Of a stretch of DNA of 39,436 nt, positions 1,542 through 31,539 are shown piece after piece. A model generated the notes under the pieces. The model had not been told where the DNA came from. It worked only from the letters and a program-made list of their open reading frames with translations, and did not search any database. This DNA comes from a virus. Lineage: Duplodnaviria > Heunggongvirae > Uroviricota > Caudoviricetes. The position numbers and the translations under genes were made by a program. The first letter of the stretch is position 1. Each line of letters begins with the position of its first letter. Where the stretch lies: IMG/VR virus record IMGVR_UViG_2537561944_000032; one strand, 5' to 3'.

Positions 1542-1823
1542 ATGCGATGTGGTTTATTAATGGCAATCTGCCTTTGTTTAGTATCTTTTAGTGGATATGC
1601 AGCAACAGGAAAGTCTGATGCTCAGATCAAAAAAGAAATAATTAAAGAATCCATTGAATCTTATCCAGGCAATTGTGCGTGTCCTTATAATCATGCAAGG
1701 AATGGTAGTAGATGTGGTGGACGCAGTGCATATAGCCGTAATGGAGGGTATGACGTGGTATGTTATGAGGGTGATGTTACCGATGAAATGATCCGGCAAT
1801 GGAAGCAGGAGAATGCTGAGTAA
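1542..1823 (+). CDS. hypothetical small secreted cysteine-rich protein (signal peptide, about 93 aa mature precursor)
   Basis: ORF 1428..1823; likely start at internal Met (MRCGLLMAICLCLVSFSGYAATG...) giving a signal peptide; C-terminal region is Cys/Gly/Arg-rich; AT-rich context; start codon uncertain. Confidence 0.4.
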   Translation: MRCGLLMAICLCLVSFSGYAATGKSDAQIKKEIIKESIESYPGNCACPYNHARNGSRCGGRSAYSRNGGYDVVCYEGDVTDEMIRQWKQENAE

Positions 1824-1894
1824 TCTCTTTTAACAGGTTTGTTGTGCGAGCATTATGTGCCGTTAACGGTACACTAGCTAGTGATTGTTCCAAA

Positions 1895-1932
1895 AAGAAA
1901 ACCCGCAGTTCTTACGCTGCGGGTTTGTTGTT
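1895..1932. terminator. bidirectional hairpin terminator
   Basis: acccgcag-ttcttacg-ctgcgggt hairpin flanked by A-run upstream and T-rich run downstream; sits downstream of ORF 1542..1823. Confidence 0.5.
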
Positions 1933-2011
1933 CATGTCTGTGAGATAGGGTGCCACTTCAGCCAACCTTAGCAACCGATTGACGGGGGATTGCTCCCCCG
2001 TCGCGGTTTCC

Positions 2012-2152
2012 TTACTGCTTACACTGTAAGAACGCCGCAAACTCCGCTCCCCAGAAGCTCATCCGTATTTCACACAGCGAACCGCGTAGCATCCAGATGA
2101 TGAGGATTACCGTCACGCAGAACGTGATGGCTGTAAGCGATTTTTGCGACAT
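2012..2152 (-). CDS. Hok/Gef-family type I toxin-like small membrane peptide (46 aa)
   Basis: Translation MSQKSLTAITFCVTVILIIWMLRGSLCEIRMSFWGAEFAAFLQCKQ: single TM segment followed by the SLCE(I/L)R and AAF motifs shared with Hok/HokA/Gef as I recall them; GGAG RBS 8 nt upstream of ATG; stable hairpin (cgggggagcaatcccccg) immediately after the stop. Below the 60-aa ORF-track cutoff, found by manual translation. Confidence 0.6.
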   Translation of the reverse strand: MSQKSLTAITFCVTVILIIWMLRGSLCEIRMSFWGAEFAAFLQCKQ

Positions 2153-2342
2153 AGCGCTTGCTCCTTTGTTGGAGAGGCGCTAACCTATCACTTGCTTAAG
2201 GTAGATATGTTAGGGCCTCGGTTAAACAGAAATGTTTTCCGGGGCCTTTCCACATCCGGCCTTCGGGTATTCCTCCGACCATCAGCCGAAAGGCACCCGC
2301 GGGTAATCTATCGTTTTTTTGTTACTCCGGCAATTCTGCCTG

Positions 2343-2603
2343 TTAATTCTGAGGTAAAGGCAAACTCATCTGATTGTTTCCCCTGTGTGAAGCTGGCAGC
2401 TCATGCCACGGGATACCTTCCGAAGAGTGAACGCCGGAGGCGTGTTTTGATGTGAATTTATGGAAAGCTTCCAGTGTTGAGAAGCATACGCCGCATTCCA
2501 GGTTGTTACACTGGTAATACTTTTGCCGCACAGTGTTTGAATCGTTTTCCGGACGACTGGTGCGGATTCGGGCAGATGCGCCACAAAGCGGACAACGGAA
2601 CAT
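2343..2603 (-). CDS. ogr: Ogr/Delta-family zinc-finger late-gene transcription activator
   Basis: N-terminus MFRCPLCGASARIRTSR...YYQCNNLECGVCF has the C4 zinc-finger spacing of P2 Ogr (MFHCPLC...); sits downstream of D on the same strand as in P2. Confidence 0.8.
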   Translation of the reverse strand: MFRCPLCGASARIRTSRPENDSNTVRQKYYQCNNLECGVCFSTLEAFHKFTSKHASGVHSSEGIPWHELPASHRGNNQMSLPLPQN

Positions 2604-2889: not shown

Positions 2890-4029
2890 TCAGCTGCAAA
2901 TTTCGTTGTTGCTGCATGTTATCTCTTCAAGTGCAGCGGCGTTATAATCAACGGAATGATCAACCTGTGATGTAGGTCTGCCAAAAAATTCAACCCCTGA
3001 CATAATCATGTTGCCGATATTCTCTCGCTGTTTATCACTGAGCCTGTCCCACCACTCAGGGGATGAATATGTATTTTCGGCCTTTGTGAAGAAAAAATAC
3101 AGAAGGGTATTGAACATCCTGTTAGCTGGGATCTTAATTAGTGTCCGTATAAAACGTCTGATAATTGTTGAAGTTCTCAGCCAACTGAACACTACATATC
3201 CCTTACCTCCGCAGGAAAAAGCATTGAAACATACTTGTTCCGCCGACACTGTAAGATCGCTCAAATCCTGAATTTTGGTCCCATCGAAATCCCTCTCCGG
3301 TGAAAGAATTGACGAAACTACAATTGGTAAAGGCTCTGCAAAAGTGAAGATAACACTTTCAATTTCTGAAAATTGCCTGCTAAGTAGGATGCGGTCGAGG
3401 CTAGTTTTAAGATTATTTAATTCAATTATTGCTGCATTTAAGCCACTTTGGTGCTGGTCGATTAATTTCTGAATATAATACTGTTCAACTTGTAGCTTTC
3501 CTTTATCGGCATTTTTAGCAAAATCAGAAGATAGCACTCCCCCTTCTTTGGCATAAATTTCTTTAGACAATGAACGAAACATTAAGGCAAAGCACTGCTC
3601 GTCCGTGCCTGTAAATTTTTCGTTCTCTAGGCATGAAAATAAGATTCTGTCATGAACTGCACAAAATCCTGTAAAAGTGGATGCCTGATTGATACCGATC
3701 TTCTCGGGAAGCCATTTTCCGTTGTTTCTCATCAGGCTTGCTAAGTTCATTATCACCCCCATGACGTGATTGCTGGAGTCGGCGATCGCCTTAAGGCTAC
3801 TGCTCTTAGATATCGTATGCGCCTGAACGATGCGTTTATCACAATCTTCGTGCATGGATGCTGGCGCATAACATGCCTTTCTCTGCGAGAGAGACTTTGA
3901 AAATTTCAGTGCCTCGGCTTTGGATACCGGAGTTTCACGATCTCGACCAAGATGGCACTTTTTATACTTAAGTCCTGAATTACACCAGCACTTATCATTT
4001 CTTCCTAATTTCACTTTATTGTTTCCCAC
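2890..4029 (-). CDS. hypothetical protein with N-terminal SEC-C metal-binding motif (379 aa), cargo gene in AT-rich island
   Basis: ORF begins ...GRNDKCWCNSGLKYKKCH (CxC-x8-CH SEC-C motif); remainder has no family I recognise; region is markedly AT-rich relative to flanking phage genes; inserted between D and ogr, which are adjacent in P2. Start codon uncertain (GTG at 4029 or downstream GTG). Confidence 0.6.
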   Translation of the reverse strand: MGNNKVKLGRNDKCWCNSGLKYKKCHLGRDRETPVSKAEALKFSKSLSQRKACYAPASMHEDCDKRIVQAHTISKSSSLKAIADSSNHVMGVIMNLASLMRNNGKWLPEKIGINQASTFTGFCAVHDRILFSCLENEKFTGTDEQCFALMFRSLSKEIYAKEGGVLSSDFAKNADKGKLQVEQYYIQKLIDQHQSGLNAAIIELNNLKTSLDRILLSRQFSEIESVIFTFAEPLPIVVSSILSPERDFDGTKIQDLSDLTVSAEQVCFNAFSCGGKGYVVFSWLRTSTIIRRFIRTLIKIPANRMFNTLLYFFFTKAENTYSSPEWWDRLSDKQRENIGNMIMSGVEFFGRPTSQVDHSVDYNAAALEEITCSNNEICS

Positions 4030-5279
4030 GAAATTAATGTTCTATAACAAAAACACTTATCGAAAATAGGTGTAATTTATCACTCCGGCAGCTAAAAGAT
4101 CATCTGCCACATGCACGATAATAAATCTTCCTTGCGTCATCATCTCCCTCTGTTCTTAAATCAGGTGTTGCCTGTGTGCGGAGGATTCGCGAAGTACAGT
4201 AGCCGAAATGCATGATCTTACCCATCAATGGTGAGCACGCGATAATAAGTGAGTCCCTAATTGACCACTCATGGCAATACAACTTCAACCAGCATTCATG
4301 ACCACTATCCGTGGATTAACTGTTACATAAGCAACACCTGCTCTAGGCACAAAGCGGGCTGCCAGATTGGGTCTGGCACTGTGCTGTGAGTGTGTCAGTT
4401 CTGGTTTGAGTCAATACATCTAATTTGCTCATTCTGTTTCTGCTATCCATTCCGGGATTTTTGCTTCAAGCTCAAGCTGTGTGGTAAAGCCGCTGTTATC
4501 AATGGTGTGCTCGGCTTTTGCAATAATCCAGTCCTGATTATCGATGTCACTTTTGAAGCCTGTCACCGTGCCATGCATTTCGGGATAGAGTTCTGCGCGT
4601 CCACGCGCCAGCGTGATGGAGAATGATGCGGCTCCGCGTTGTAGCTGCTGCCACTTTGCCGCCGCTGCACGTCTTGCTGCCTGCTCGTTCTGATAAGTCT
4701 TGCGTAACACAAACACGTTGCCTTCCGCACCTTCCATATAGTCACCTTCACGGCTGCTGCTTTTCTCCTTTTTCGGTTTGCGGCGTTTCACGCTGACTTT
4801 TTTCTTTTCCCGTAATTAAGATCAAGCCAGTAAGCACGTACCCCCGTATACGCTTCGCGGTCAGCAATGCGGAACTGATGGCGATCGCCACTGCTGCGCG
4901 TGATGGCGAACGATGGCAACGGCTGGCCCTGTGCGTTCACGCCACCGCCTGGCATGATGAATAACAGATTACTGCTTTTTACCGTAGTGATTGCGCCCAG
5001 CATTTCCGCCATGCGCGTAAGGAAGGACATGTCGCTTTCTTCGGTCTGGTCGGCGTGGTCGATTTCAATATCCATCAGCATTTCGCTGATTTGTGGTTTC
5101 AGACCGTACCGATGAGCGATGGCGGATACCACGCGCTCAACGGTCACATCATGCCAGGACACCTCACGTTTAACGTTAAATTCATCCCGAAAATCTGCGC
5201 TTCTGGCTGAAACAGTCAGCCTGTCCGGCGGTCCTTCGTGAGCGATTTCATCAACAATGTAAGTGCCTTTTTCTGTCAG

Positions 5280-5306
5280 TGAGGTAGCCTGAGTTTAACG
5301 GACACT
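5280..5306 (+). repeat. IS left terminal inverted repeat
   Basis: tgaggtagcctgagtttaacggacact; matches reverse complement of 6517-6543 at about 19/27 positions, including the terminal TGAGGT and the CGGACACT block. Confidence 0.7.
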
Positions 5307-5343
5307 CCTTCCTGAAATAGAATGGCATCAGAAGGAGCTAATA

Positions 5344-5646
5344 ATGAGCAGAAAAACCCAACGTTACTCTAAAGAGTTCAAAGCCGAAGCTGTCAGAACG
5401 GTTCTTGAAAATCAACTTTCGATCAGTGAAGGCGCTTCCCGATTATCTCTTCCTGAAGGCACTTTAGGACAATGGGTTACCGCCGCCAGAAAAGGGCTCG
5501 GTACTCCTGGTTCCCGCACGGTGGCTGAACTGGAATCTGAAATTCTGCAACTGCGTAAGGCGTTAAATGAAGCTCGCCTTGAGCGAGATATATTAAAAAA
5601 AGCAACAGCGTATTTTGCACAGGAGTCGCTGAAAAATACGCGTTAA
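5344..5646 (+). CDS. IS3-family transposase OrfA (HTH DNA-binding, 100 aa)
   Basis: MSRKTQRYSKEFKAEAVRTV...LERDILKKATAYFAQES; typical IS3 OrfA with leucine zipper; contains slippery A_AAA_AAA_G at 5595-5602. Confidence 0.85.
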   Translation: MSRKTQRYSKEFKAEAVRTVLENQLSISEGASRLSLPEGTLGQWVTAARKGLGTPGSRTVAELESEILQLRKALNEARLERDILKKATAYFAQESLKNTR

Positions 5647-6500
5647 TCGAACAATGGCGACAACAATTTCCCATTGAAGCGATGTGTCAGGTATTTGGTG
5701 TATCCAGGAGCGGTTATTACAACTGGGTACAGCATGAACCCTCAGACAGAAAACAAAGTGATGAGCGGCTAAAACTGGAGATTAAGGTGGCACATATCCG
5801 CACTCGCGAAACATATGGAACCCGGCGGCTCCAGACGGAGCTGGCAGAGAATGGCATCATCGTTGGTCGTGACCGACTGGCACGTCTTCGTAAGGAGCTA
5901 AGGCTACGCTGTAAGCAGAAACGCAAGTTCAGAGCGACTACGAACTCGAACCACAATCTGCCAGTTGCGCCAAATCTGCTGAACCAGACGTTCGCTCCTA
6001 CAGCACCAAATCAGGTCTGGGTGGCGGACCTGACGTATGTTGCCACACAGGAGGGATGGTTGTACCTCGCTGGCATCAAAGATGTTTATACGTGCGAAAT
6101 TGTCGGCTACGCCATGGGAGAGCGCATGACAAAAGAGCTGACAGGTAAAGCTCTGTTTATGGCGCTCAGGAGCCAGCGCCCACCTGCCGGGCTAATCCAC
6201 CACTCTGATCGAGGTTCACAGTACTGCGCATACGATTACCGGGTCATACAGGAGCAGTTTGGTCTGAAAACATCAATGTCGCGTAAAGGTAACTGTTACG
6301 ACAACGCTCCGATGGAAAGCTTCTGGGGAACGCTGAAAAATGAGAGCCTGAGCCACTATCGTTTTAATAACCGGGATGAAGCCATCTCAGTAATACGGGA
6401 ATACATTGAGATTTTCTACAATCGTCAGCGTCGTCACTCTCGTCTGGGGAATATCTCCCCGGCAGCCTTCAGGGAAAAATATCATCAGATGGCTGCTTAA
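5595..6500 (+). CDS. IS3-family transposase OrfB (DDE integrase domain), expressed as OrfAB fusion by -1 frameshift
   Basis: Frame -1 relative to orfA is open from 5583; reads KKSNSVFCTGVAEKYALIEQWRQQFPIEAMCQVFGVSRSGYY... with DDE catalytic core (HSDRGSQY...NAPMESFWGTLK); start coordinate given at the slip site. Confidence 0.8.
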   Translation, partial: KKSNSVFCTGVAEKYALIEQWRQQFPIEAMCQVFGVSRSGYYNWVQHEPSDRKQSDERLKLEIKVAHIRTRETYGTRRLQTELAENGIIVGRDRLARLRKELRLRCKQKRKFRATTNSNHNLPVAPNLLNQTFAPTAPNQVWVADLTYVATQEGWLYLAGIKDVYTCEIVGYAMGERMTKELTGKALFMALRSQRPPAGLIHHSDRGSQYCAYDYRVIQEQFGLKTSMSRKGNCYDNAPMESFWGTLKNESLSHYRFNNRDEAISVIREYIEIFYNRQRRHSRLGNISPAAFREKYHQMAA

Positions 6501-6516
6501 AAAAAGAACAAATGGT

Positions 6517-6543
6517 AGTGTCCGCTATTGCCAGTACACCTCA
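6517..6543 (+). repeat. IS right terminal inverted repeat
   Basis: agtgtccgctattgccagtacacctca; terminal CA; its last three bases create the TGA stop that truncates the gpD N-terminal fragment. Confidence 0.7.
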
Positions 6544-13879: not shown

Positions 13880-16011
13880 TATGCAAGCCTCACAATATAG
13901 TTAAATGCGATGTTTTTTACGGTGTTTTCTTCGTTACCCGTAGCGTTAACGGTGATGGTGTGTCCGTGGGGACCAATAATGACAGAATGGGCATGAGCAC
14001 CAATGCCGATAGTGTGGTTATGGGCACCGATATATACATTGTGAGCATGCTCGCCTGCGCTCGACGTGGTACCAGTACCTAACGCAGCGTTATAACCGGC
14101 TGATACACCATTCCCCGCGCCAGTGTGACCAACAGGTATATTGTGTGAATGATTTCCAGCGCTATTCGTAGTTTTTGTGCCGTAATCAAATGAACTGGTC
14201 GTTTTAGTACCGTAATCAAACGACGATGTGGTTTTCGTCCCCAAATCCGTACTGGATGCGCTGGCGCTGTGGGTGTGCGATTTAATGCCGTCCTGTTCCT
14301 GAGACAATACGGCACGACCACTGCCGGGCTTGCCCTTAATCGTCCAGCCACGCATATCAGGAATAACGCCTGACGGATAAGCGACTGCAAGTTTCGGGTA
14401 TGCAGATTTGTCAAAAGTCTGCCCCTGCATCAGGGCATAACCAGACGGAACGGTATCTGATGGCCACGGAATCGGTGCACCGACTGGATAAAACTCTTCA
14501 GGAGGATGAGCCGAGGTGTAAAGCTGCGCCCACGGCGACCAGTTTGCGTCGGGCGTATCCCGTCGTGAACGAATAAATGCCGGAGCATGAGCACCGCTTA
14601 TACCACTCCAGCCGATGAGTAATTCGCCTTCGCCAACGGCTGTCATCCCTTTCAGGTGAATGATATTTCCATACGTTGTTGGATATCCGTTGTTATACGC
14701 CTCGTATAACTCCAGACCTGTGGCCCCCTGCATATTATCTGTCAGGGCGGTCAGCCGACCTTTTGAAGCCAGATTAACTGACGATACTGCTGTCCCATCT
14801 GACGGTAACGCCCCGATCTCTGATGCTGTTGGCTTATTCCTGGAGTTATAGTCCCTTCGCCAGCCAGGAGCATAAGCATCACCATGATTAATATAAGTAA
14901 ATTGAGCATTAGGGATGCCTTCACCGCTGGATGTACTCGGTGTGGTAATGCGTATGGTCATTGCGCCGCGGGTGCCAATAACTTCCACAACAGCACCTGC
15001 AAGACAAATACTTCCGCAACCTGTATCTGTAATGACCTTATTATTTGCATAAGCCCATGAGCCTTTGCACATCCAGTAAGGATGGTTAAATGCCCCCTGA
15101 CTCTCTAGCCAAAAAATCAACTGCGCAGTTGTCCATGCTTCACTATCTCCACCAATATTCAGCTCTGCACTATATGCACGGCAGGCACCGATATTTTTCG
15201 TAAAGGTGTCTTTATCAGAGATATCCTCACCATTCTTAGCTTTCTGCAGACGTTTTTCAGCATTGTCATAGGCAGCTTTTACTGCATTTGATGTTGCCGC
15301 CAGCGTTTCAGATGTACTGTTGGTTGCACTACTAAGCTGGACAAGGCCTTTTCGCGCTGTTGTGGCATCCTGCGCTGTATATTTTCCGTTAGCAAGATCA
15401 TACGCGACCTTAACCGCTTTCGGCGTTGCAGCCAGCGTTTCAGAATCGCTGTTAGTGGCGCTACTGAGTTGAACAAAGCCTTTTGCGGTCAGCGAGGCAT
15501 CCGGGTGACATCGTGACTGTTCATGCTCTTTCAGTTCGTTATCCACGTAATCCACTGTGGCCATCACCATGGTGTTATCCACGGTAAGCGCCACAGTGGC
15601 AGTGCTGGATACGGTCAGAATGGTGCGAAATGTTTGTGCACGTCCGGACCCTTCGGCAACGGCTGGCTTGTAACTTTCGGCAGTATTGCCCACCGCGATT
15701 AAATCGCCGTGCTCATCAAACACACCAATTTCCCGGATCCAGAATCCGCCCGTTTCTGGAGGAATAACCAGCTCCGCAATAATGCGGTTCTGATGTGTTG
15801 CGTCCAGGATGACGCGATTAACAGTGTGTCGCCACACCTCATGCACCAGACGGGTCTGCTTACTGTCTGGTGTGGGCAACGCGCCGCCACCGTCGCCCAC
15901 GGCCATATGAGTCAGGCGGACAGGCTTACCATCTGGCGCGGCTGCCTGAGCTAATTTTTTGGCACCTGTATCGGTGATAACGGTTTTAAATTTTCGTGTT
16001 GTGGTACTCAT
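13879..16011 (-). CDS. H: tail fiber protein (P2 gpH-like) with divergent His-rich C-terminal receptor-binding tip
   Basis: N-terminal two-thirds match P2 gpH as I recall it, including the duplicated [23 protein letters not shown] segment; C-terminus carries HxH repeats ([33 protein letters not shown]). Confidence 0.9.
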
Positions 16012-30263: not shown

Positions 30264-30575
30264 TTATTCAGGAAATAACGCCCGGATATTTCCGGCCATC
30301 TGACTGGTTATCTGTGCGGTTGATACTGGCTGTGATGCGGGGCGTTCTGTCCTGGTTTGTGTCACTGATAACGCTTCATCACCAGCCCATGCAGCCAGTC
30401 GATAAGCCTCTGCCGGATTCATTTTCAGAAGTGCCAGCCCGGCCAGAAAAGCCACGCGTTGGCCGCTTTTGCGGGCTTCTGGTGTAAGGCTGTCCAGCCA
30501 GGCGCATGCTTCTCCTTCGTTCTTGACGGCGGTGGGCTTCAGATAGAAACTTATCCGTCTGGTTGGAGTCGTCAT
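30264..30575 (-). CDS. ParR/StbB-like centromere-binding adaptor (ribbon-helix-helix type)
   Basis: 103 aa from ATG 30575 (AAGGAG RBS, 2 nt after parM-like stop). RRISFYLKP...LDSLTPEARKSGQRVAFLAGLALL and C-terminal IRALFPE resemble plasmid R1 ParR as I recall it. Confidence 0.65.
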   Translation of the reverse strand: MTTPTRRISFYLKPTAVKNEGEACAWLDSLTPEARKSGQRVAFLAGLALLKMNPAEAYRLAAWAGDEALSVTQTRTERPASQPVSTAQITSQMAGNIRALFPE

Positions 30576-30579
30576 TGGT

Positions 30580-31539
30580 TTACTCCTTGTCCATTGCGTA
30601 CAGCCCATTAACCAGAGCAAACTGTGGCACCCCGTCCGCGATGAAAGTCGCATTAACTCCGCAGGCTTCGCGGATAGCGGGTGCCACAATCTCCGCCCCT
30701 CCACCGACAACCATCACCCGCCCGTAACCCGAAAAACCCGCCAGCGCGCGGATCACGCGTTGTTTCAGTGTTTCTTCCTTTTCACGAATAACCGCCATCA
30801 GGCTGGCGTAATGCGCGTCATTGTGGATGTGCTGGCGCAGCCAGGCTTCATCATGGCGATGTTCGATAATGGTATTGGCGATGTGGTGACTGGTGCGCAT
30901 ACCGTTAGTGGCCATCACCGACAGTACGGCATCGGCCATCAGAGAAACGCCCACGTGTGGATCGCAAAACACCTGGCTGATACCTGCCAGTTGCCCCTGA
31001 ACCTTTGCCACATCCAGAGTGGTTCCGCCCAAATCCACAATCAGCAGGGATTCAAACGGACTCATGTCAGCCAGTGCCTTAAAGCCAGCCGGAATGGATT
31101 CAGGCATAACCCGTACGTTACGGATAGTGAATGCTTCGCCGTTCTGGTACTCCACCGGGCGCATGACGTTCGCTTTTTTGCGGTTGATGTTGGCCATGTC
31201 CGGCTGTGCGTTTGTATCGAAATACTCGCTCAGTGGCAGGGTGACAACCACATCCACTTCCTGTGGTGTGATGCCTGATTTGACCAGCGCGTGATGAATG
31301 GCAATTATATTCACATCGCTGTACTGGTATTGCGTGTCGGTCGTCTGGACAAAGCGATCGCTGACCGGATCAAAACCATAGCGCACGCCATCAAGCATGT
31401 AGTTCGCGGGCTGCGTGCCACCGAACGGCGCAGACCATTCCGACTTGAAGCTGTTCGGGCTGATGGCGTTGCGGCGTTCGCCGTTCTCAGTCCATGCCAG
31501 CTTGATGTTGGTGGAGCCGTCGTCGATACAAATTTTCAT
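30580..31539 (-). CDS. ParM/StbA-like actin-family ATPase
   Basis: N-terminus MKICIDDGSTNIKLAW...ISPNSFKSEW...QYSDVNIIAIHHALVKSG closely parallels plasmid R1 ParM (FIDDGSTNIKLQW...ISPNSFKREW...QYSDVNVVAVHHALL) as I recall it; also the adjacent-Gly phosphate-binding loop DLGGTT. Confidence 0.8.
   Translation of the reverse strand: MKICIDDGSTNIKLAWTENGERRNAISPNSFKSEWSAPFGGTQPANYMLDGVRYGFDPVSDRFVQTTDTQYQYSDVNIIAIHHALVKSGITPQEVDVVVTLPLSEYFDTNAQPDMANINRKKANVMRPVEYQNGEAFTIRNVRVMPESIPAGFKALADMSPFESLLIVDLGGTTLDVAKVQGQLAGISQVFCDPHVGVSLMADAVLSVMATNGMRTSHHIANTIIEHRHDEAWLRQHIHNDAHYASLMAVIREKEETLKQRVIRALAGFSGYGRVMVVGGGAEIVAPAIREACGVNATFIADGVPQFALVNGLYAMDKE

Follow-up and report, generated by a model that had tools for sequence, protein, structure and literature searches.

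Between ogr, the late-gene activator, and the end of a P2-family prophage lies a 46-codon open reading frame, and two questions are raised by it: does so short a frame encode a Hok toxin, and, if so, how is its translation controlled? The frame was examined within the window, by which is meant the whole stretch of 39,436 nucleotides of caudoviricete DNA that was analysed. A sequence-only reading had placed a Hok-like type I toxin gene here, about 190 bp from the ogr stop and beside a tRNA cluster. The frame and its surroundings are as follows.

2012 to 2152, minus strand: hok coding sequence, ATG start, 46 codons and TAA stop, MSQKSLTAITFCVTVILIIWMLRGSLCEIRMSFWGAEFAAFLQCKQ, taken from the open reading frame list
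2343 to 2603, minus strand: ogr (late-gene activator), upstream neighbour, outside the locus; Pfam Ogr_Delta, 52.4 bits
949 to 1069, plus strand: left copy of a 121-bp att direct repeat, comprising the 3' part of tRNA-Leu(UAA) and terminator; prophage end

The frame was found where it had been placed, and its distance from ogr was upheld, with ogr ending at 2343, 190 bp from the hok ATG. The tRNA cluster (701-1003) proved not to be a neighbour, lying about 1 kb from hok, past the prophage end and one more open reading frame.

For identification of the product, the 46-residue peptide was searched against protein family collections. Pfam returned PF01848 (HOK_GEF) at 34.9 bits (E = 1.1e-8; gathering score 22), with peptide residues 7-44 aligned to positions 5-42 of the 42-position profile. 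PHROG 251, whose label of 'MokW-like host killing' is taken from hokW-sokW, matched at 82 bits (E = 3e-23). A chance frame in the ogr-att spacer, with a coincidental SLCEIR...AAF motif, could be argued from its length, since 46 residues falls under the usual gene-calling cut-offs; these two matches, the independent homology of the leader at the RNA level (RF01794, below) and a reading frame conserved in 90 related loci, collected in a search seeded with a three-sequence alignment of the peptide, refute that view and leave it practically no probability. The SLCE(I/L)R...AAF signature noted earlier is thus real. On alignment to the family, all seven residues kept in >80% of Hoks in a recent census (M1, C16, T18, L30, C31, E32 and E41 in census numbering; bioRxiv 10.1101/2025.08.07.668861) were present, as M1, C12, T14, L26, C27, E28 and E37 of the window peptide. 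The predicted topology is that of a Hok, with a short N-terminus on the cytoplasmic side (K4), a single membrane-spanning helix at about residues 6-22, where the hydrophobic stretch LTAITFCVTVILIIWML lies, and a periplasmic C-terminal part holding C27 and C44. Codon position 3 varies more than positions 1 and 2, and the peptide, judged by its substitution pattern, is under purifying selection because pN/pS is 0.07-0.41. Taken on these comparisons, the frame is a genuine Hok-family membrane toxin gene.

Identical DNA at the same coordinates is annotated in RefSeq as "Hok/Gef family protein" (WP_000078921.1), adjoining ogr in numerous genomes, that of E. coli O26:H11 among them. The closest named Hok is HokA of E. 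coli K-12, at 45% identity over 47 residues, with M.QK, WM.R.SLCE and AAFL.CK in common, including the C-terminal cysteine. Assignment as a HokA orthologue was nevertheless rejected, as NCBIfam Hok models scored far below their cut-offs (39.4 versus 89 bits for NF007290, the HokA equivalog; 27.4 versus 73 bits for NF007279, the Hok subfamily). K-12 hokA is a chromosomal gene next to IS150 and is accompanied by a mokA pseudogene, whereas the window hok is phage-borne. No PADLOC model matched the peptide. The clade itself corresponds to cluster 72 of the census of Escalera-Maurer et al., where it is flagged as high-abundance and where constructs were cloned for arabinose-induced toxicity tests; the cloned representatives were 72_1621, which is identical to the window peptide at 44 of 46 residues (V15A and R23H relative to it), and 72_1589, identical to the Stx-phage copy (Table S2; bioRxiv 10.1101/2025.08.07.668861). 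Toxicity was reported there for 42 of 45 constructs, and none of the three named as non-toxic comes from cluster 72 (bioRxiv 10.1101/2025.08.07.668861). Through the reported toxicity of peptides differing at 2 of 46 residues, the window peptide is a candidate toxin. The toxin gene is therefore already known, with an identical protein in RefSeq as Hok/Gef and a cluster that has been catalogued and toxicity-tested. The census deliberately left out mok, Sok and mRNA structure, and the ogr-att position in P2-like phages is unmentioned in it (bioRxiv 10.1101/2025.08.07.668861).

As accessory cargo, the locus lies between ogr and the attachment site in a prophage at tRNA-Leu that is P88-like (Xuanwuvirus, P2-family). 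It was placed inside the prophage because the att repeat at 949-1069 marks the prophage end; in E. coli O26:H11 11368 the same 121 bp, without a mismatch, are found again past the integrase gene. A second att copy was not found within the window, which ends at the integrase stop, so the repeat could not be detected inside it. Linkage to ogr was seen in 84 of the 90 related loci, with hok about 190 nt downstream of ogr (about 450 nt start to start). The locus is present in 1554 of 5426 complete E. coli genomes, and the module also occurs in P88 and in Stx2a phages. Enrichment of hok in prophages has been described (bioRxiv 10.1101/2025.08.07.668861). Homology with the Stx-phage module starts at 2319, at the hok promoter, and ends at 1948, in the 3' fold-back inhibitory (fbi) element, which are among the transcript features listed here.

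2305 to 2333, minus strand: hok promoter, -35 TTGCCG (2333-2328), 17-nt spacer, -10 TAGATT (2310-2305); 8 of 12 consensus positions matched
1893 to 2298, minus strand: predicted full-length hok mRNA, about 406 nt, with predicted ends
2292 to 2298, minus strand: 5' half of the fold-back (fbi/tac) helix, GGGUGCC, pairing with 1948-1954 in the minimum free energy (MFE) fold and the RNAalifold consensus
2154 to 2180, minus strand: hairpin sequestering the Shine-Dalgarno (SD) sequence, GCGCCUCUCC / GGAGCAAGCGC, from the predicted fold
2161 to 2164, minus strand: hok Shine-Dalgarno GGAG, 8 nt before the ATG (2152-2150), read directly and nearly invariant in the alignment of relatives
1980 to 2003, minus strand: 3' stem-loop directly after the stop codon, G+C-rich, GACGGGGGA-GCAA-UCCCCCGUC, from a terminator-like scan
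1948 to 1954, minus strand: 3' fbi element, GGCACCC, partner of 2292-2298
1899 to 1926, minus strand: intrinsic terminator, 10-11 bp stem followed by a U run; the scan matches both strands

Around the frame, these features make up a hok/sok-type locus of about 440 bp (1893-2333). The hok promoter is weak: neither it nor a sok promoter was detected by a standard promoter scan, and a relaxed scan recovered both together with other candidates equally weak. Its -10 box aligns with those of R1, hokB and hokC, as does the 5' end GGGUGC, and transcription is inferred to start at G2298. The leader could be aligned with those of R1 hok, hokB and hokC element for element. Rfam RF01794 matched the hok strand at 2298-2142 over its full length (model positions 1-157, E = 2e-8), with a score of 46.7 bits that is below the gathering score of 59; on the same strand the controls gave 118 (hokC), 110 (hokB) and 87 bits (R1 type), and the P88 and Stx-phage copies 48 and 42. 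RF01794 bears the name 'sok' and is in practice the hok leader in sense orientation. Both the GGAG ribosome-binding site and the stable 3' hairpin of the sequence-only reading were recovered. Its boundaries had to be redrawn: the leader, given as 2153..2343, is transcribed only from about 2298 to 2153, with 2305-2333 being promoter, and the locus, given as 2012-2343, runs downstream of the frame to about 1893 and takes in the 3' fbi element and terminator.

Folding of the leader had been proposed as a way to look for fbi/tac-like elements, and a predicted helix of this kind was found in the transcript. The predicted mRNA has an MFE of -174.6 kcal/mol (z = -7.9 versus shuffles) and is closed by a 5'-3' helix, formed by the GGGUGCC/GGCACCC pair. 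In 47 unique relatives, 99% of cells were paired versus about 43% for slid controls, and 12 pairs had compensatory changes versus 3.0 +/- 1.1 in shuffles, with 0 of 500 shuffles reaching 12; the structure tested in both cases came from the same alignment. Pairing is held by compensatory changes across sequences down to 61% identity. The strongest covariation could be seen in the 3' stem-loop (2003-1980), where G-C is replaced by A-U in 10 sequences and A-U by G-C or C-G in 7. This element is presumed to protect the 3' end of the processed, active mRNA, a role drawn from its R1 equivalent (PMC9841398). For the fbi/tac helix, 100% of cells are paired in the 47 sequences and 6 of the 7 columns of the 5' half are invariant, and invariant pairs give no covariation evidence. 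When the mRNA was truncated at its 3' end, the predicted folds showed refolding of the 5' end, and the Sok target became more accessible (0.40, from 0.21 before truncation). A long-range helix of the window MFE fold, CCUUAAGCAA (mRNA 97-106) with UUGCUAAGG, was dropped, as it is not maintained in relatives. The terminator is bidirectional and is common to the hok locus and a convergent open reading frame at 1542-1823.

On the opposite strand, two features were assigned.

2194 to 2255, plus strand: predicted Sok-like antisense RNA, about 55-62 nt, with a 5' single-stranded tail of about 19 nt, a hairpin GGCCUCGG...CCGGGGCC and then UUUCC
2158 to 2186, plus strand: putative sok promoter, -35 TTGCTC (2158-2163), 17-nt spacer, -10 TAACCT (2181-2186)

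A cis-encoded antisense Sok RNA is predicted at about 2194-2255, an interval onto which the annotated K-12 sokB and sokC both project via the alignment. It folds at -22.7 kcal/mol (z = -3.6), and no segment of the locus varies more than the target of its tail (mRNA positions 87-105). The putative promoter is the positional homologue of antisense-strand hexamers in the R1-like (TTGCGC-17-TATCCT) and hokB (TTGCCG-17-TAAGAT) loci. The search for a convergent Sok-like promoter that had been proposed thus gave a divided result: the complement of the -10 box, AGGUUA, is invariant in 47 of 47 sequences, and the match to consensus is weak, at 6 of 12.

The layout is the same as that of hok/sok (parB) of plasmid R1, the type I toxin-antitoxin paradigm, and the two can be aligned throughout. 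Common to both are the weak hok promoter, a 5' GG(G/C)(U/G)GC start with 5'-3' fold-back pairing, a GCCCCG...CGAGGC hairpin that doubles as Sok terminator on the opposite strand, a CCUCU anti-SD element, the GGAG ribosome-binding site, the 3' protective stem-loop and terminator, an antisense promoter (putative in the window) whose -35 overlaps the hok SD, and the toxin core SLCEIR...E.AAF. The window locus differs from that of R1 in lacking a mok frame, in a leader about 27 nt shorter, in a Hok of 46 rather than 52 residues with 42% identity over 31 residues only, in the lower RF01794 score and in being carried on an integrated phage rather than on a plasmid. It is, in our estimation, likely to be a hok/sok-type type I toxin-antitoxin module carried as prophage cargo. 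Counted against this explanation are the poor consensus match of the putative sok promoter, the RF01794 and NCBIfam scores below their cut-offs, the lack of a canonical mok start in all 47 sequences, and an SD hairpin of greater stability than its counterparts in R1, hokC and hokB (-14.2 kcal/mol versus -9.1 to -11.4) that is closed in every predicted fold, full-length or truncated, so that the probability of an unpaired SD is about 0. Pairing of this hairpin is maintained via G-C/G-U changes in the 47 sequences.

Apart from the missing mok helper frame, the locus is ordinary. The leader had been expected to hold mok/sok-type elements, and the sok half of that expectation is supported by the projection of sokB and sokC; for mok, there is no frame. 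The canonical start (ATG, GTG or TTG 11-12 nt after GAGG, running through the hok ribosome-binding site) was absent in 47 of 47 clade members; the same script recovered mok in all three controls (R1-like, hokB and hokC). No ATG, GTG or TTG frame reaches the hok SD in 31 of the 47 sequences, the window included, where the leader holds the following.

2180 to 2282, minus strand: leader short open reading frames and stop cluster, with AUG 2282, AUG 2255 and GUG 2253, and UAA 2198-2196, UGA 2190-2188, UAG 2187-2185 and UAG 2182-2180

The stop codons at 2198-2180 close all three frames just upstream of the SD hairpin. A 28-residue leader frame (2282-2196) was considered as a conserved peptide and rejected, as most relatives have it shifted out of frame by a 1-nt indel, and the Stx-phage, S. 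diarizonae and C. braakii copies have a truncated version or none. The mok frames of the R1-like and hokC loci are in frame with hok. In R1, Hok cannot be synthesised unless mok is translated as far as the hok SD, and premature mok stops upstream of hok abolish toxicity (PMC9841398). No statement on mok-less hok loci was found in the literature searched.

From these R1 results, from the stability of the SD hairpin and from the lack of any window frame reaching the SD, it could be argued that the locus is a translationally silent relic, hitch-hiking with the prophage, from which Hok is never made. Most K-12 hok copies are similarly crippled; hokA and hokC adjoin IS elements, and mokA is annotated as a pseudogene. 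A relic sits badly with the purifying selection on the peptide, with invariant fbi cores and an invariant sok -10 box alongside compensatory changes down to 61% identity, and with retention of the module in two unrelated phage groups and >1500 genomes. The mok-less state is, moreover, common to the whole clade and not the property of one decayed copy. Silence of the locus is for these reasons considered improbable.

As there is no mok reading frame, translation of Hok would start either directly, from the GGAG of hok, or with the help of short leader frames ending just before the SD hairpin. It is conceivable, at somewhat short of even confidence, that the clade represents a naturally mok-independent variant of hok/sok, in which the hok ribosome-binding site is strongly hairpinned and Sok would pair 30-90 nt upstream of it. 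Both repression and activation would therefore be exerted at a distance, for which RNase III cleavage, occlusion of a standby site and the short leader frames (AUG 2255, GUG 2253) are candidate routes. The last of these lie at the edge of the Sok duplex, and ribosomes terminating on them would halt 0-18 nt ahead of the SD hairpin, which they could melt. In tisB/istR-1, as reportedly described by Darfeuille et al. in 2007, the antisense RNA pairs not over the ribosome-binding site of the toxin, which is structured, but far upstream of it, blocking a standby site for ribosomes and bringing about cleavage by RNase III. The comparison is one of working principle, as its toxin and RNA families are unrelated to those of the window; a mok-less hok would need this type of action at a distance, and a standby site in the window is hypothetical.

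For the hok/sok-type module as a whole, the following course of events may be envisaged. The weak promoter would give an mRNA of about 400 nt, held by the GGGUGCC/GGCACCC lock in a closed, stable and untranslatable form in which the ribosome-binding site is also buried in its local hairpin, as predicted by folding and supported phylogenetically. By inference from R1 and from the folding predictions, slow 3' trimming to the stem-loop at 2003-1980 would remove the lock, whereupon the 5' end would refold and the antisense target would open. A short, unstable antisense RNA from about 2194-2255 would, by homology, pair with the leader, and the duplex would be destroyed, probably by RNase III. Were the antisense supply to stop, possibly because the element is lost, an infecting phage shuts transcription off or the prophage is induced, the processed mRNA would be translated, and the 46-residue Hok would enter the inner membrane and kill or arrest the cell.

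The most likely role of the module would be retention of the prophage, perhaps of an episomal form, and/or abortive infection. The prophage also carries ParM/ParR, which like hok/sok is an R1-type stability module, and the pairing of the two hints at an episomal phase with hok/sok as post-segregational killer. A rival account concerns the role alone and is compatible with addiction: the same locus would have been selected for the lytic cycle, Sok vanishing on induction and Hok damaging the membrane early, thereby aiding lysis and phage release. Its model is hokW-sokW of the Stx2 prophage Sp5, likewise a prophage-borne hok/sok, whose sokW RNA is complementary to the hokW 5' UTR and needs RNase III and Hfq; on mitomycin C treatment sokW RNA is lost and HokW can be seen about 1 h ahead of the endolysin, and deletion of the locus halves Sp5 phage release (Takada et al. 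2021, PMC8621323). HokW falls in another Hok cluster, however, being a HokC/D-like protein of 51 residues with 37% identity over 35 residues to the window peptide. The window locus was rejected as hokW itself, as HokW begins MKQQKAM... and has a hokC-like leader; the hokW mRNA starts GGGUGCUUGAGGCU, as does that of hokC, and its carrier is a lambdoid rather than a P2-like phage. An IS3-family element is also inserted in gene D of the window prophage, which as a result probably cannot complete a lytic cycle, yet the O26:H11 11368 prophage, with no IS at that site, has an identical hok locus. A selected role in lysis is on balance thought unlikely, and retention and/or abortive infection are preferred.

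The ogr-att end of P88-like P2-family prophages thus almost always carries what appears to be a complete hok/sok-type module, and over a quarter of complete E. coli genomes have it. No member of the clade has mok, which in the textbook system is the presumed route of Sok action; the locus therefore offers a way to find out if natural hok systems can do without mok coupling. What such modules contribute to EHEC prophages that are integrated, and in some cases defective, could be learned from it as well.

The sequence-only reading had placed a Hok-like toxin gene beside ogr, the late-gene activator gene, and its description of the reading frame was borne out. The ORF listing contains a 46-amino acid ORF with an ATG start at 2012..2152 on the minus strand, with a GGAG ribosome-binding site 8 nt from the ATG (2164-2161), a G+C-rich hairpin after the stop codon (2003-1980), and the end of the ogr ORF (Pfam Ogr_Delta, 52.4 bits) at 2343, 190 bp upstream, as had been estimated. 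Upstream of the hok ATG there is no alternative in-frame start. The proposed family was confirmed by Pfam HOK_GEF (34.9 bits, E = 1.1e-8; gathering score, 22), and the peptide scores 82 bits against PHROG 251. The closest named protein is HokA of K-12, at 45% identity, and scores against the NCBIfam HokA and Hok models fall far under their cut-offs. Equivalence to HokW of the Stx2 prophage Sp5 was considered and rejected, HokW being a different, HokC/D-like peptide.

The clade of the window copy lies in the high-abundance cluster 72 of a Hok census preprint (bioRxiv 10.1101/2025.08.07.668861), in which 72_1621 (V15A and R23H relative to the window peptide) and the Stx-phage peptide 72_1589 were both cloned. 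In that census 42 of the 45 homologues tested were toxic, and the three exceptions came from clusters other than 72. All seven positions conserved in >80% of the census Hok peptides are present in the window peptide. With a pN/pS of 0.07-0.41 against relatives, and with third codon positions the most variable, the peptide is under selection. Its identity is near certain.

To the other side of hok, a 121-bp direct repeat at 949-1069 is made up of the tRNA-Leu(UAA) (leuZ) 3' part and its terminator; its second copy, in E. coli O26:H11 11368, lies past the integrase gene. This att repeat sets the prophage start at 1070 and so puts hok inside the prophage, between ogr and att. The prophage site is the yecA-leuZ interval; the window ends exactly at the integrase stop codon, with the right att copy beyond it. 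The upstream neighbour of hok is ogr in 84 of 90 related loci, including those where Ogr is 59-74% identical. Between hok and att lies a convergent ORF (1542-1823, plus strand; 93 aa in RefSeq, WP_001303543.1), which about one in four related loci have downstream of hok. Its N-terminus is hydrophobic and signal-like, the rest is Cys-rich, and it matches PHROG 27544 (194 bits; unknown function), with no family found in Pfam or NCBIfam.

Alignment to known hok loci had been suggested as a check. The minus strand of the window was aligned with R1-type hok/sok and with K-12 hokB/sokB and hokC/sokC, and the complete architecture was recovered:

17 nt upstream of the -10 box, minus strand: hok promoter -35 box, TTGCCG
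2310-2305, minus strand: hok promoter -10 box, TAGATT, placed by alignment
2298, minus strand: predicted mRNA 5' end, GGGUGCC, matching GGGUGC of hokB and hokC
2003-1980, minus strand: stem-loop after the hok coding sequence
1954-1948, minus strand: heptamer GGCACCC, perfectly complementary to the 5' end
1926-1899, minus strand: intrinsic terminator 3' of GGCACCC, bidirectional and common to hok and ORF 1542-1823

The GCCCCG...CGAGGC hairpin, the CCUCU anti-SD element and the GGAG of the R1-type, hokB and hokC loci are likewise present. Homology to the Stx-phage copy begins with the -10 box (2319) and stops with the 3' complement (1948), limits that define the mobile unit. Rfam RF01794 hits the hok strand at 2298-2142 (46.7 bits, E = 2e-8; gathering score 59). 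Since the known loci are also matched on the hok-sense strand (hokC 118 bits, hokB 110, R1 type 87), this is in practice a hok-leader model, against which the clade, at 42-48 bits and under the gathering score, is a divergent branch. The reading of the locus as a genuine, well-formed hok/sok-type locus is supported.

The 406-nt hok RNA is predicted to fold at -174.6 kcal/mol (z = -7.9), with its ends joined by a 15-bp closing helix and the hok SD fully paired. For comparison, 47 distinct mRNA sequences were aligned, the set that remained from the window, the P88 and Stx-phage records and 87 related loci taken from genome and viral contig collections; over a slightly longer promoter-to-terminator stretch they are 61-99.6% identical to the window copy. 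A conserved mRNA fold, another check put forward, was found: the RNAalifold consensus has standard pairs in 99.0% of cells against 39-44% in a slid-partner control. Compensatory double changes occur at 12 pairs versus 3.0 +/- 1.1 in shuffles (reached in 0 of 500), the structure tested being derived from the same 47-sequence alignment. The strongest covariation is in the stem-loop after the stop codon (G-C to A-U, n=10; A-U to G-C or C-G, n=7). The fold-back core never varies, and is therefore backed by conservation, not covariation. When the RNA is cut before the 3' complement, its 5' end is predicted to refold as a local hairpin and antisense-target accessibility to rise from 0.21 to 0.40, while the SD hairpin remains closed. 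An RNA lock of the hok mRNA is phylogenetically supported.

For the antisense RNA, annotated sokB and sokC both project through the alignment onto one interval of the opposite strand:

2194-2255, plus strand: predicted Sok-like gene
2181-2186, plus strand: putative sok -10 box, TAACCT, 7 nt upstream of 2194-2255
17 nt upstream of TAACCT, plus strand: putative sok -35 box, TTGCTC

The positional counterparts, read on the antisense strand, are TTGCGC-17-TATCCT in the R1 type and TTGCCG-17-TAAGAT in hokB. At 6 of 12 positions the putative promoter is a poor match to consensus. The only fully invariant leader hexamer across the 47 sequences is the complement of its -10 box. The predicted Sok RNA starts with ~19 single-stranded nt as a 5' tail, which leads into a 35-nt hairpin and UUUCC (-22.7 kcal/mol, z = -3.6). 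The locus varies most in the segment complementary to this tail (0.59 bits/column; coding sequence, 0.14), as would be expected if tail-target recognition, complementary by construction, were diversifying. Expression of a Sok RNA is inferred.

Of the mok/sok-type elements suggested for the leader, the Sok-like gene has a predicted counterpart at 2194-2255; mok, the helper reading frame of R1, does not. In the R1-like, hokB and hokC controls, a script located an ATG 11-12 nt 3' of the conserved GAGG, opening a frame through the hok start, whereas no ATG, GTG or TTG occupies this position in any of the 47 clade sequences, though GAGG is kept. No ORF reaching the hok SD was found in 31 of the 47, the window among them. 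A synonymous TGT/TGC polymorphism at Hok Cys27 switches a stop in the overlapping frame on and off, and that frame is therefore not constrained. In R1, Hok synthesis requires mok translation up to the hok SD (PMC9841398). With mok absent, and with an SD hairpin stronger in the window (-14.2 kcal/mol) than in the reference loci (-9.1 to -11.4), the textbook scheme does not account for release of Hok translation or its block by Sok. In the R1-like plasmid copy and K-12 hokC, mok is in frame with hok, as an N-terminal extension; in hokB the two frames differ. Other starts and stops occur in the window leader:

2282, minus strand: AUG
2255, minus strand: AUG, at the predicted Sok duplex edge
2253, minus strand: GUG, at the same predicted edge
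2198-2180, minus strand: stops in all three frames, directly before the anti-SD arm

As raw counts, 44 of 47 sequences have a leader ORF that ends <=12 nt from the anti-SD arm or past it, and in 13 one spans or abuts the hok AUG; the leader-ORF peptides are not conserved across the clade. In its most divergent member, from Citrobacter braakii (1207-1572 in that record's own numbering), a leader ORF from GUG46 or UUG103 has a UGA stop that overlaps the AUG of hok as UGAUG, a layout typical of coupled translation.

O26:H11 11368 and many other EHEC genomes carry the 801 bp around the ORF at 100% identity; the ORF appears there as "Hok/Gef family protein" (WP_000078921.1) and its neighbour as "ogr/Delta-like zinc finger family protein". 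Of 5426 complete E. coli genomes, 1554 contain a match. Among sequenced phages, P88 and its fellow Xuanwuvirus members of the Peduoviridae (P2-like) match best, at 94-97% identity; in these the gene is labelled "MokW-like host killing", and a module of ~375 nt recurs at 83% identity in many Stx2a-converting lambdoid phages. Novelty is low, as the locus is already annotated and its cluster catalogued and toxicity-tested.

The O26:H11 11368 prophage is otherwise 99.97-99.98% identical, and lacks an IS3-family element (1264 bp, with 28-nt imperfect terminal inverted repeats) that lies inside late-control gene D of the window:

5280-6543: IS3-family element
5344-5646: IS3 orfA
5682-6500: IS3 orfB, 335 bits to NCBIfam transpos_IS3

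With this insertion in gene D the window prophage is probably defective; the hok locus is intact despite it. Four single-base deletions relative to O26:H11 11368 (4804, 26885, 28082 and 36448) may be assembly errors, not real frameshifts; that at 4804, the one site read, is in an A/T homopolymer run and breaks gene D into ORFs 4429-4791 and 4788-5162. Between ogr and gene D, a 379-aa ORF (2890-4029, minus strand; RefSeq 'YecA family protein') has an N-terminal SEC-C zinc motif (Pfam, 34 bits) as its sole recognisable part, with no convincing match beyond it in PADLOC or PDB. P88 lacks it, ~5 of the 90 related loci and 92 of the 5426 E. coli genomes have it, and its phage relatives are limited to distant ones (Listeria phages, 29% identity); it is a rare accessory gene in a cargo slot. 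The immunity region by the integrase differs from the C repressor and Cox of P88: 36982-38429 (plus strand) encodes an HTH protein (134 aa), a DUF2511 protein (115 aa) and a 216-aa protein without a Pfam family (RefSeq 'membrane protein'). A direct repeat at 15259-15484 consists of two 94-nt copies, 73% identical and 132 nt apart.

The mechanism we adopt is the R1 scheme without mok: the hok mRNA would be stable and folded, the antisense RNA unstable, and killing would follow once antisense supply stops, through a putative processing step and a putative trigger of Hok translation. The locus may serve in prophage or episome retention, in abortive infection or as a lysis aid. The prophage also encodes a partition pair, which P88 shares:

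30264-31539, minus strand: parM/parR pair, just after the replication endonuclease gene

ParM (319 aa) matches Pfam StbA_N (274 bits), the ParM C-terminal domain (230 bits) and R1 ParM (PDB 1mwk, 314 bits), and the 103-aa ParR/StbB-type protein matches Plasmid_stab_B (82 bits). This phage group thus has homologues of the two stability loci of R1, parMR and parB, and the combination of ParM/ParR with hok/sok suggests a possible episomal or partitioned state.
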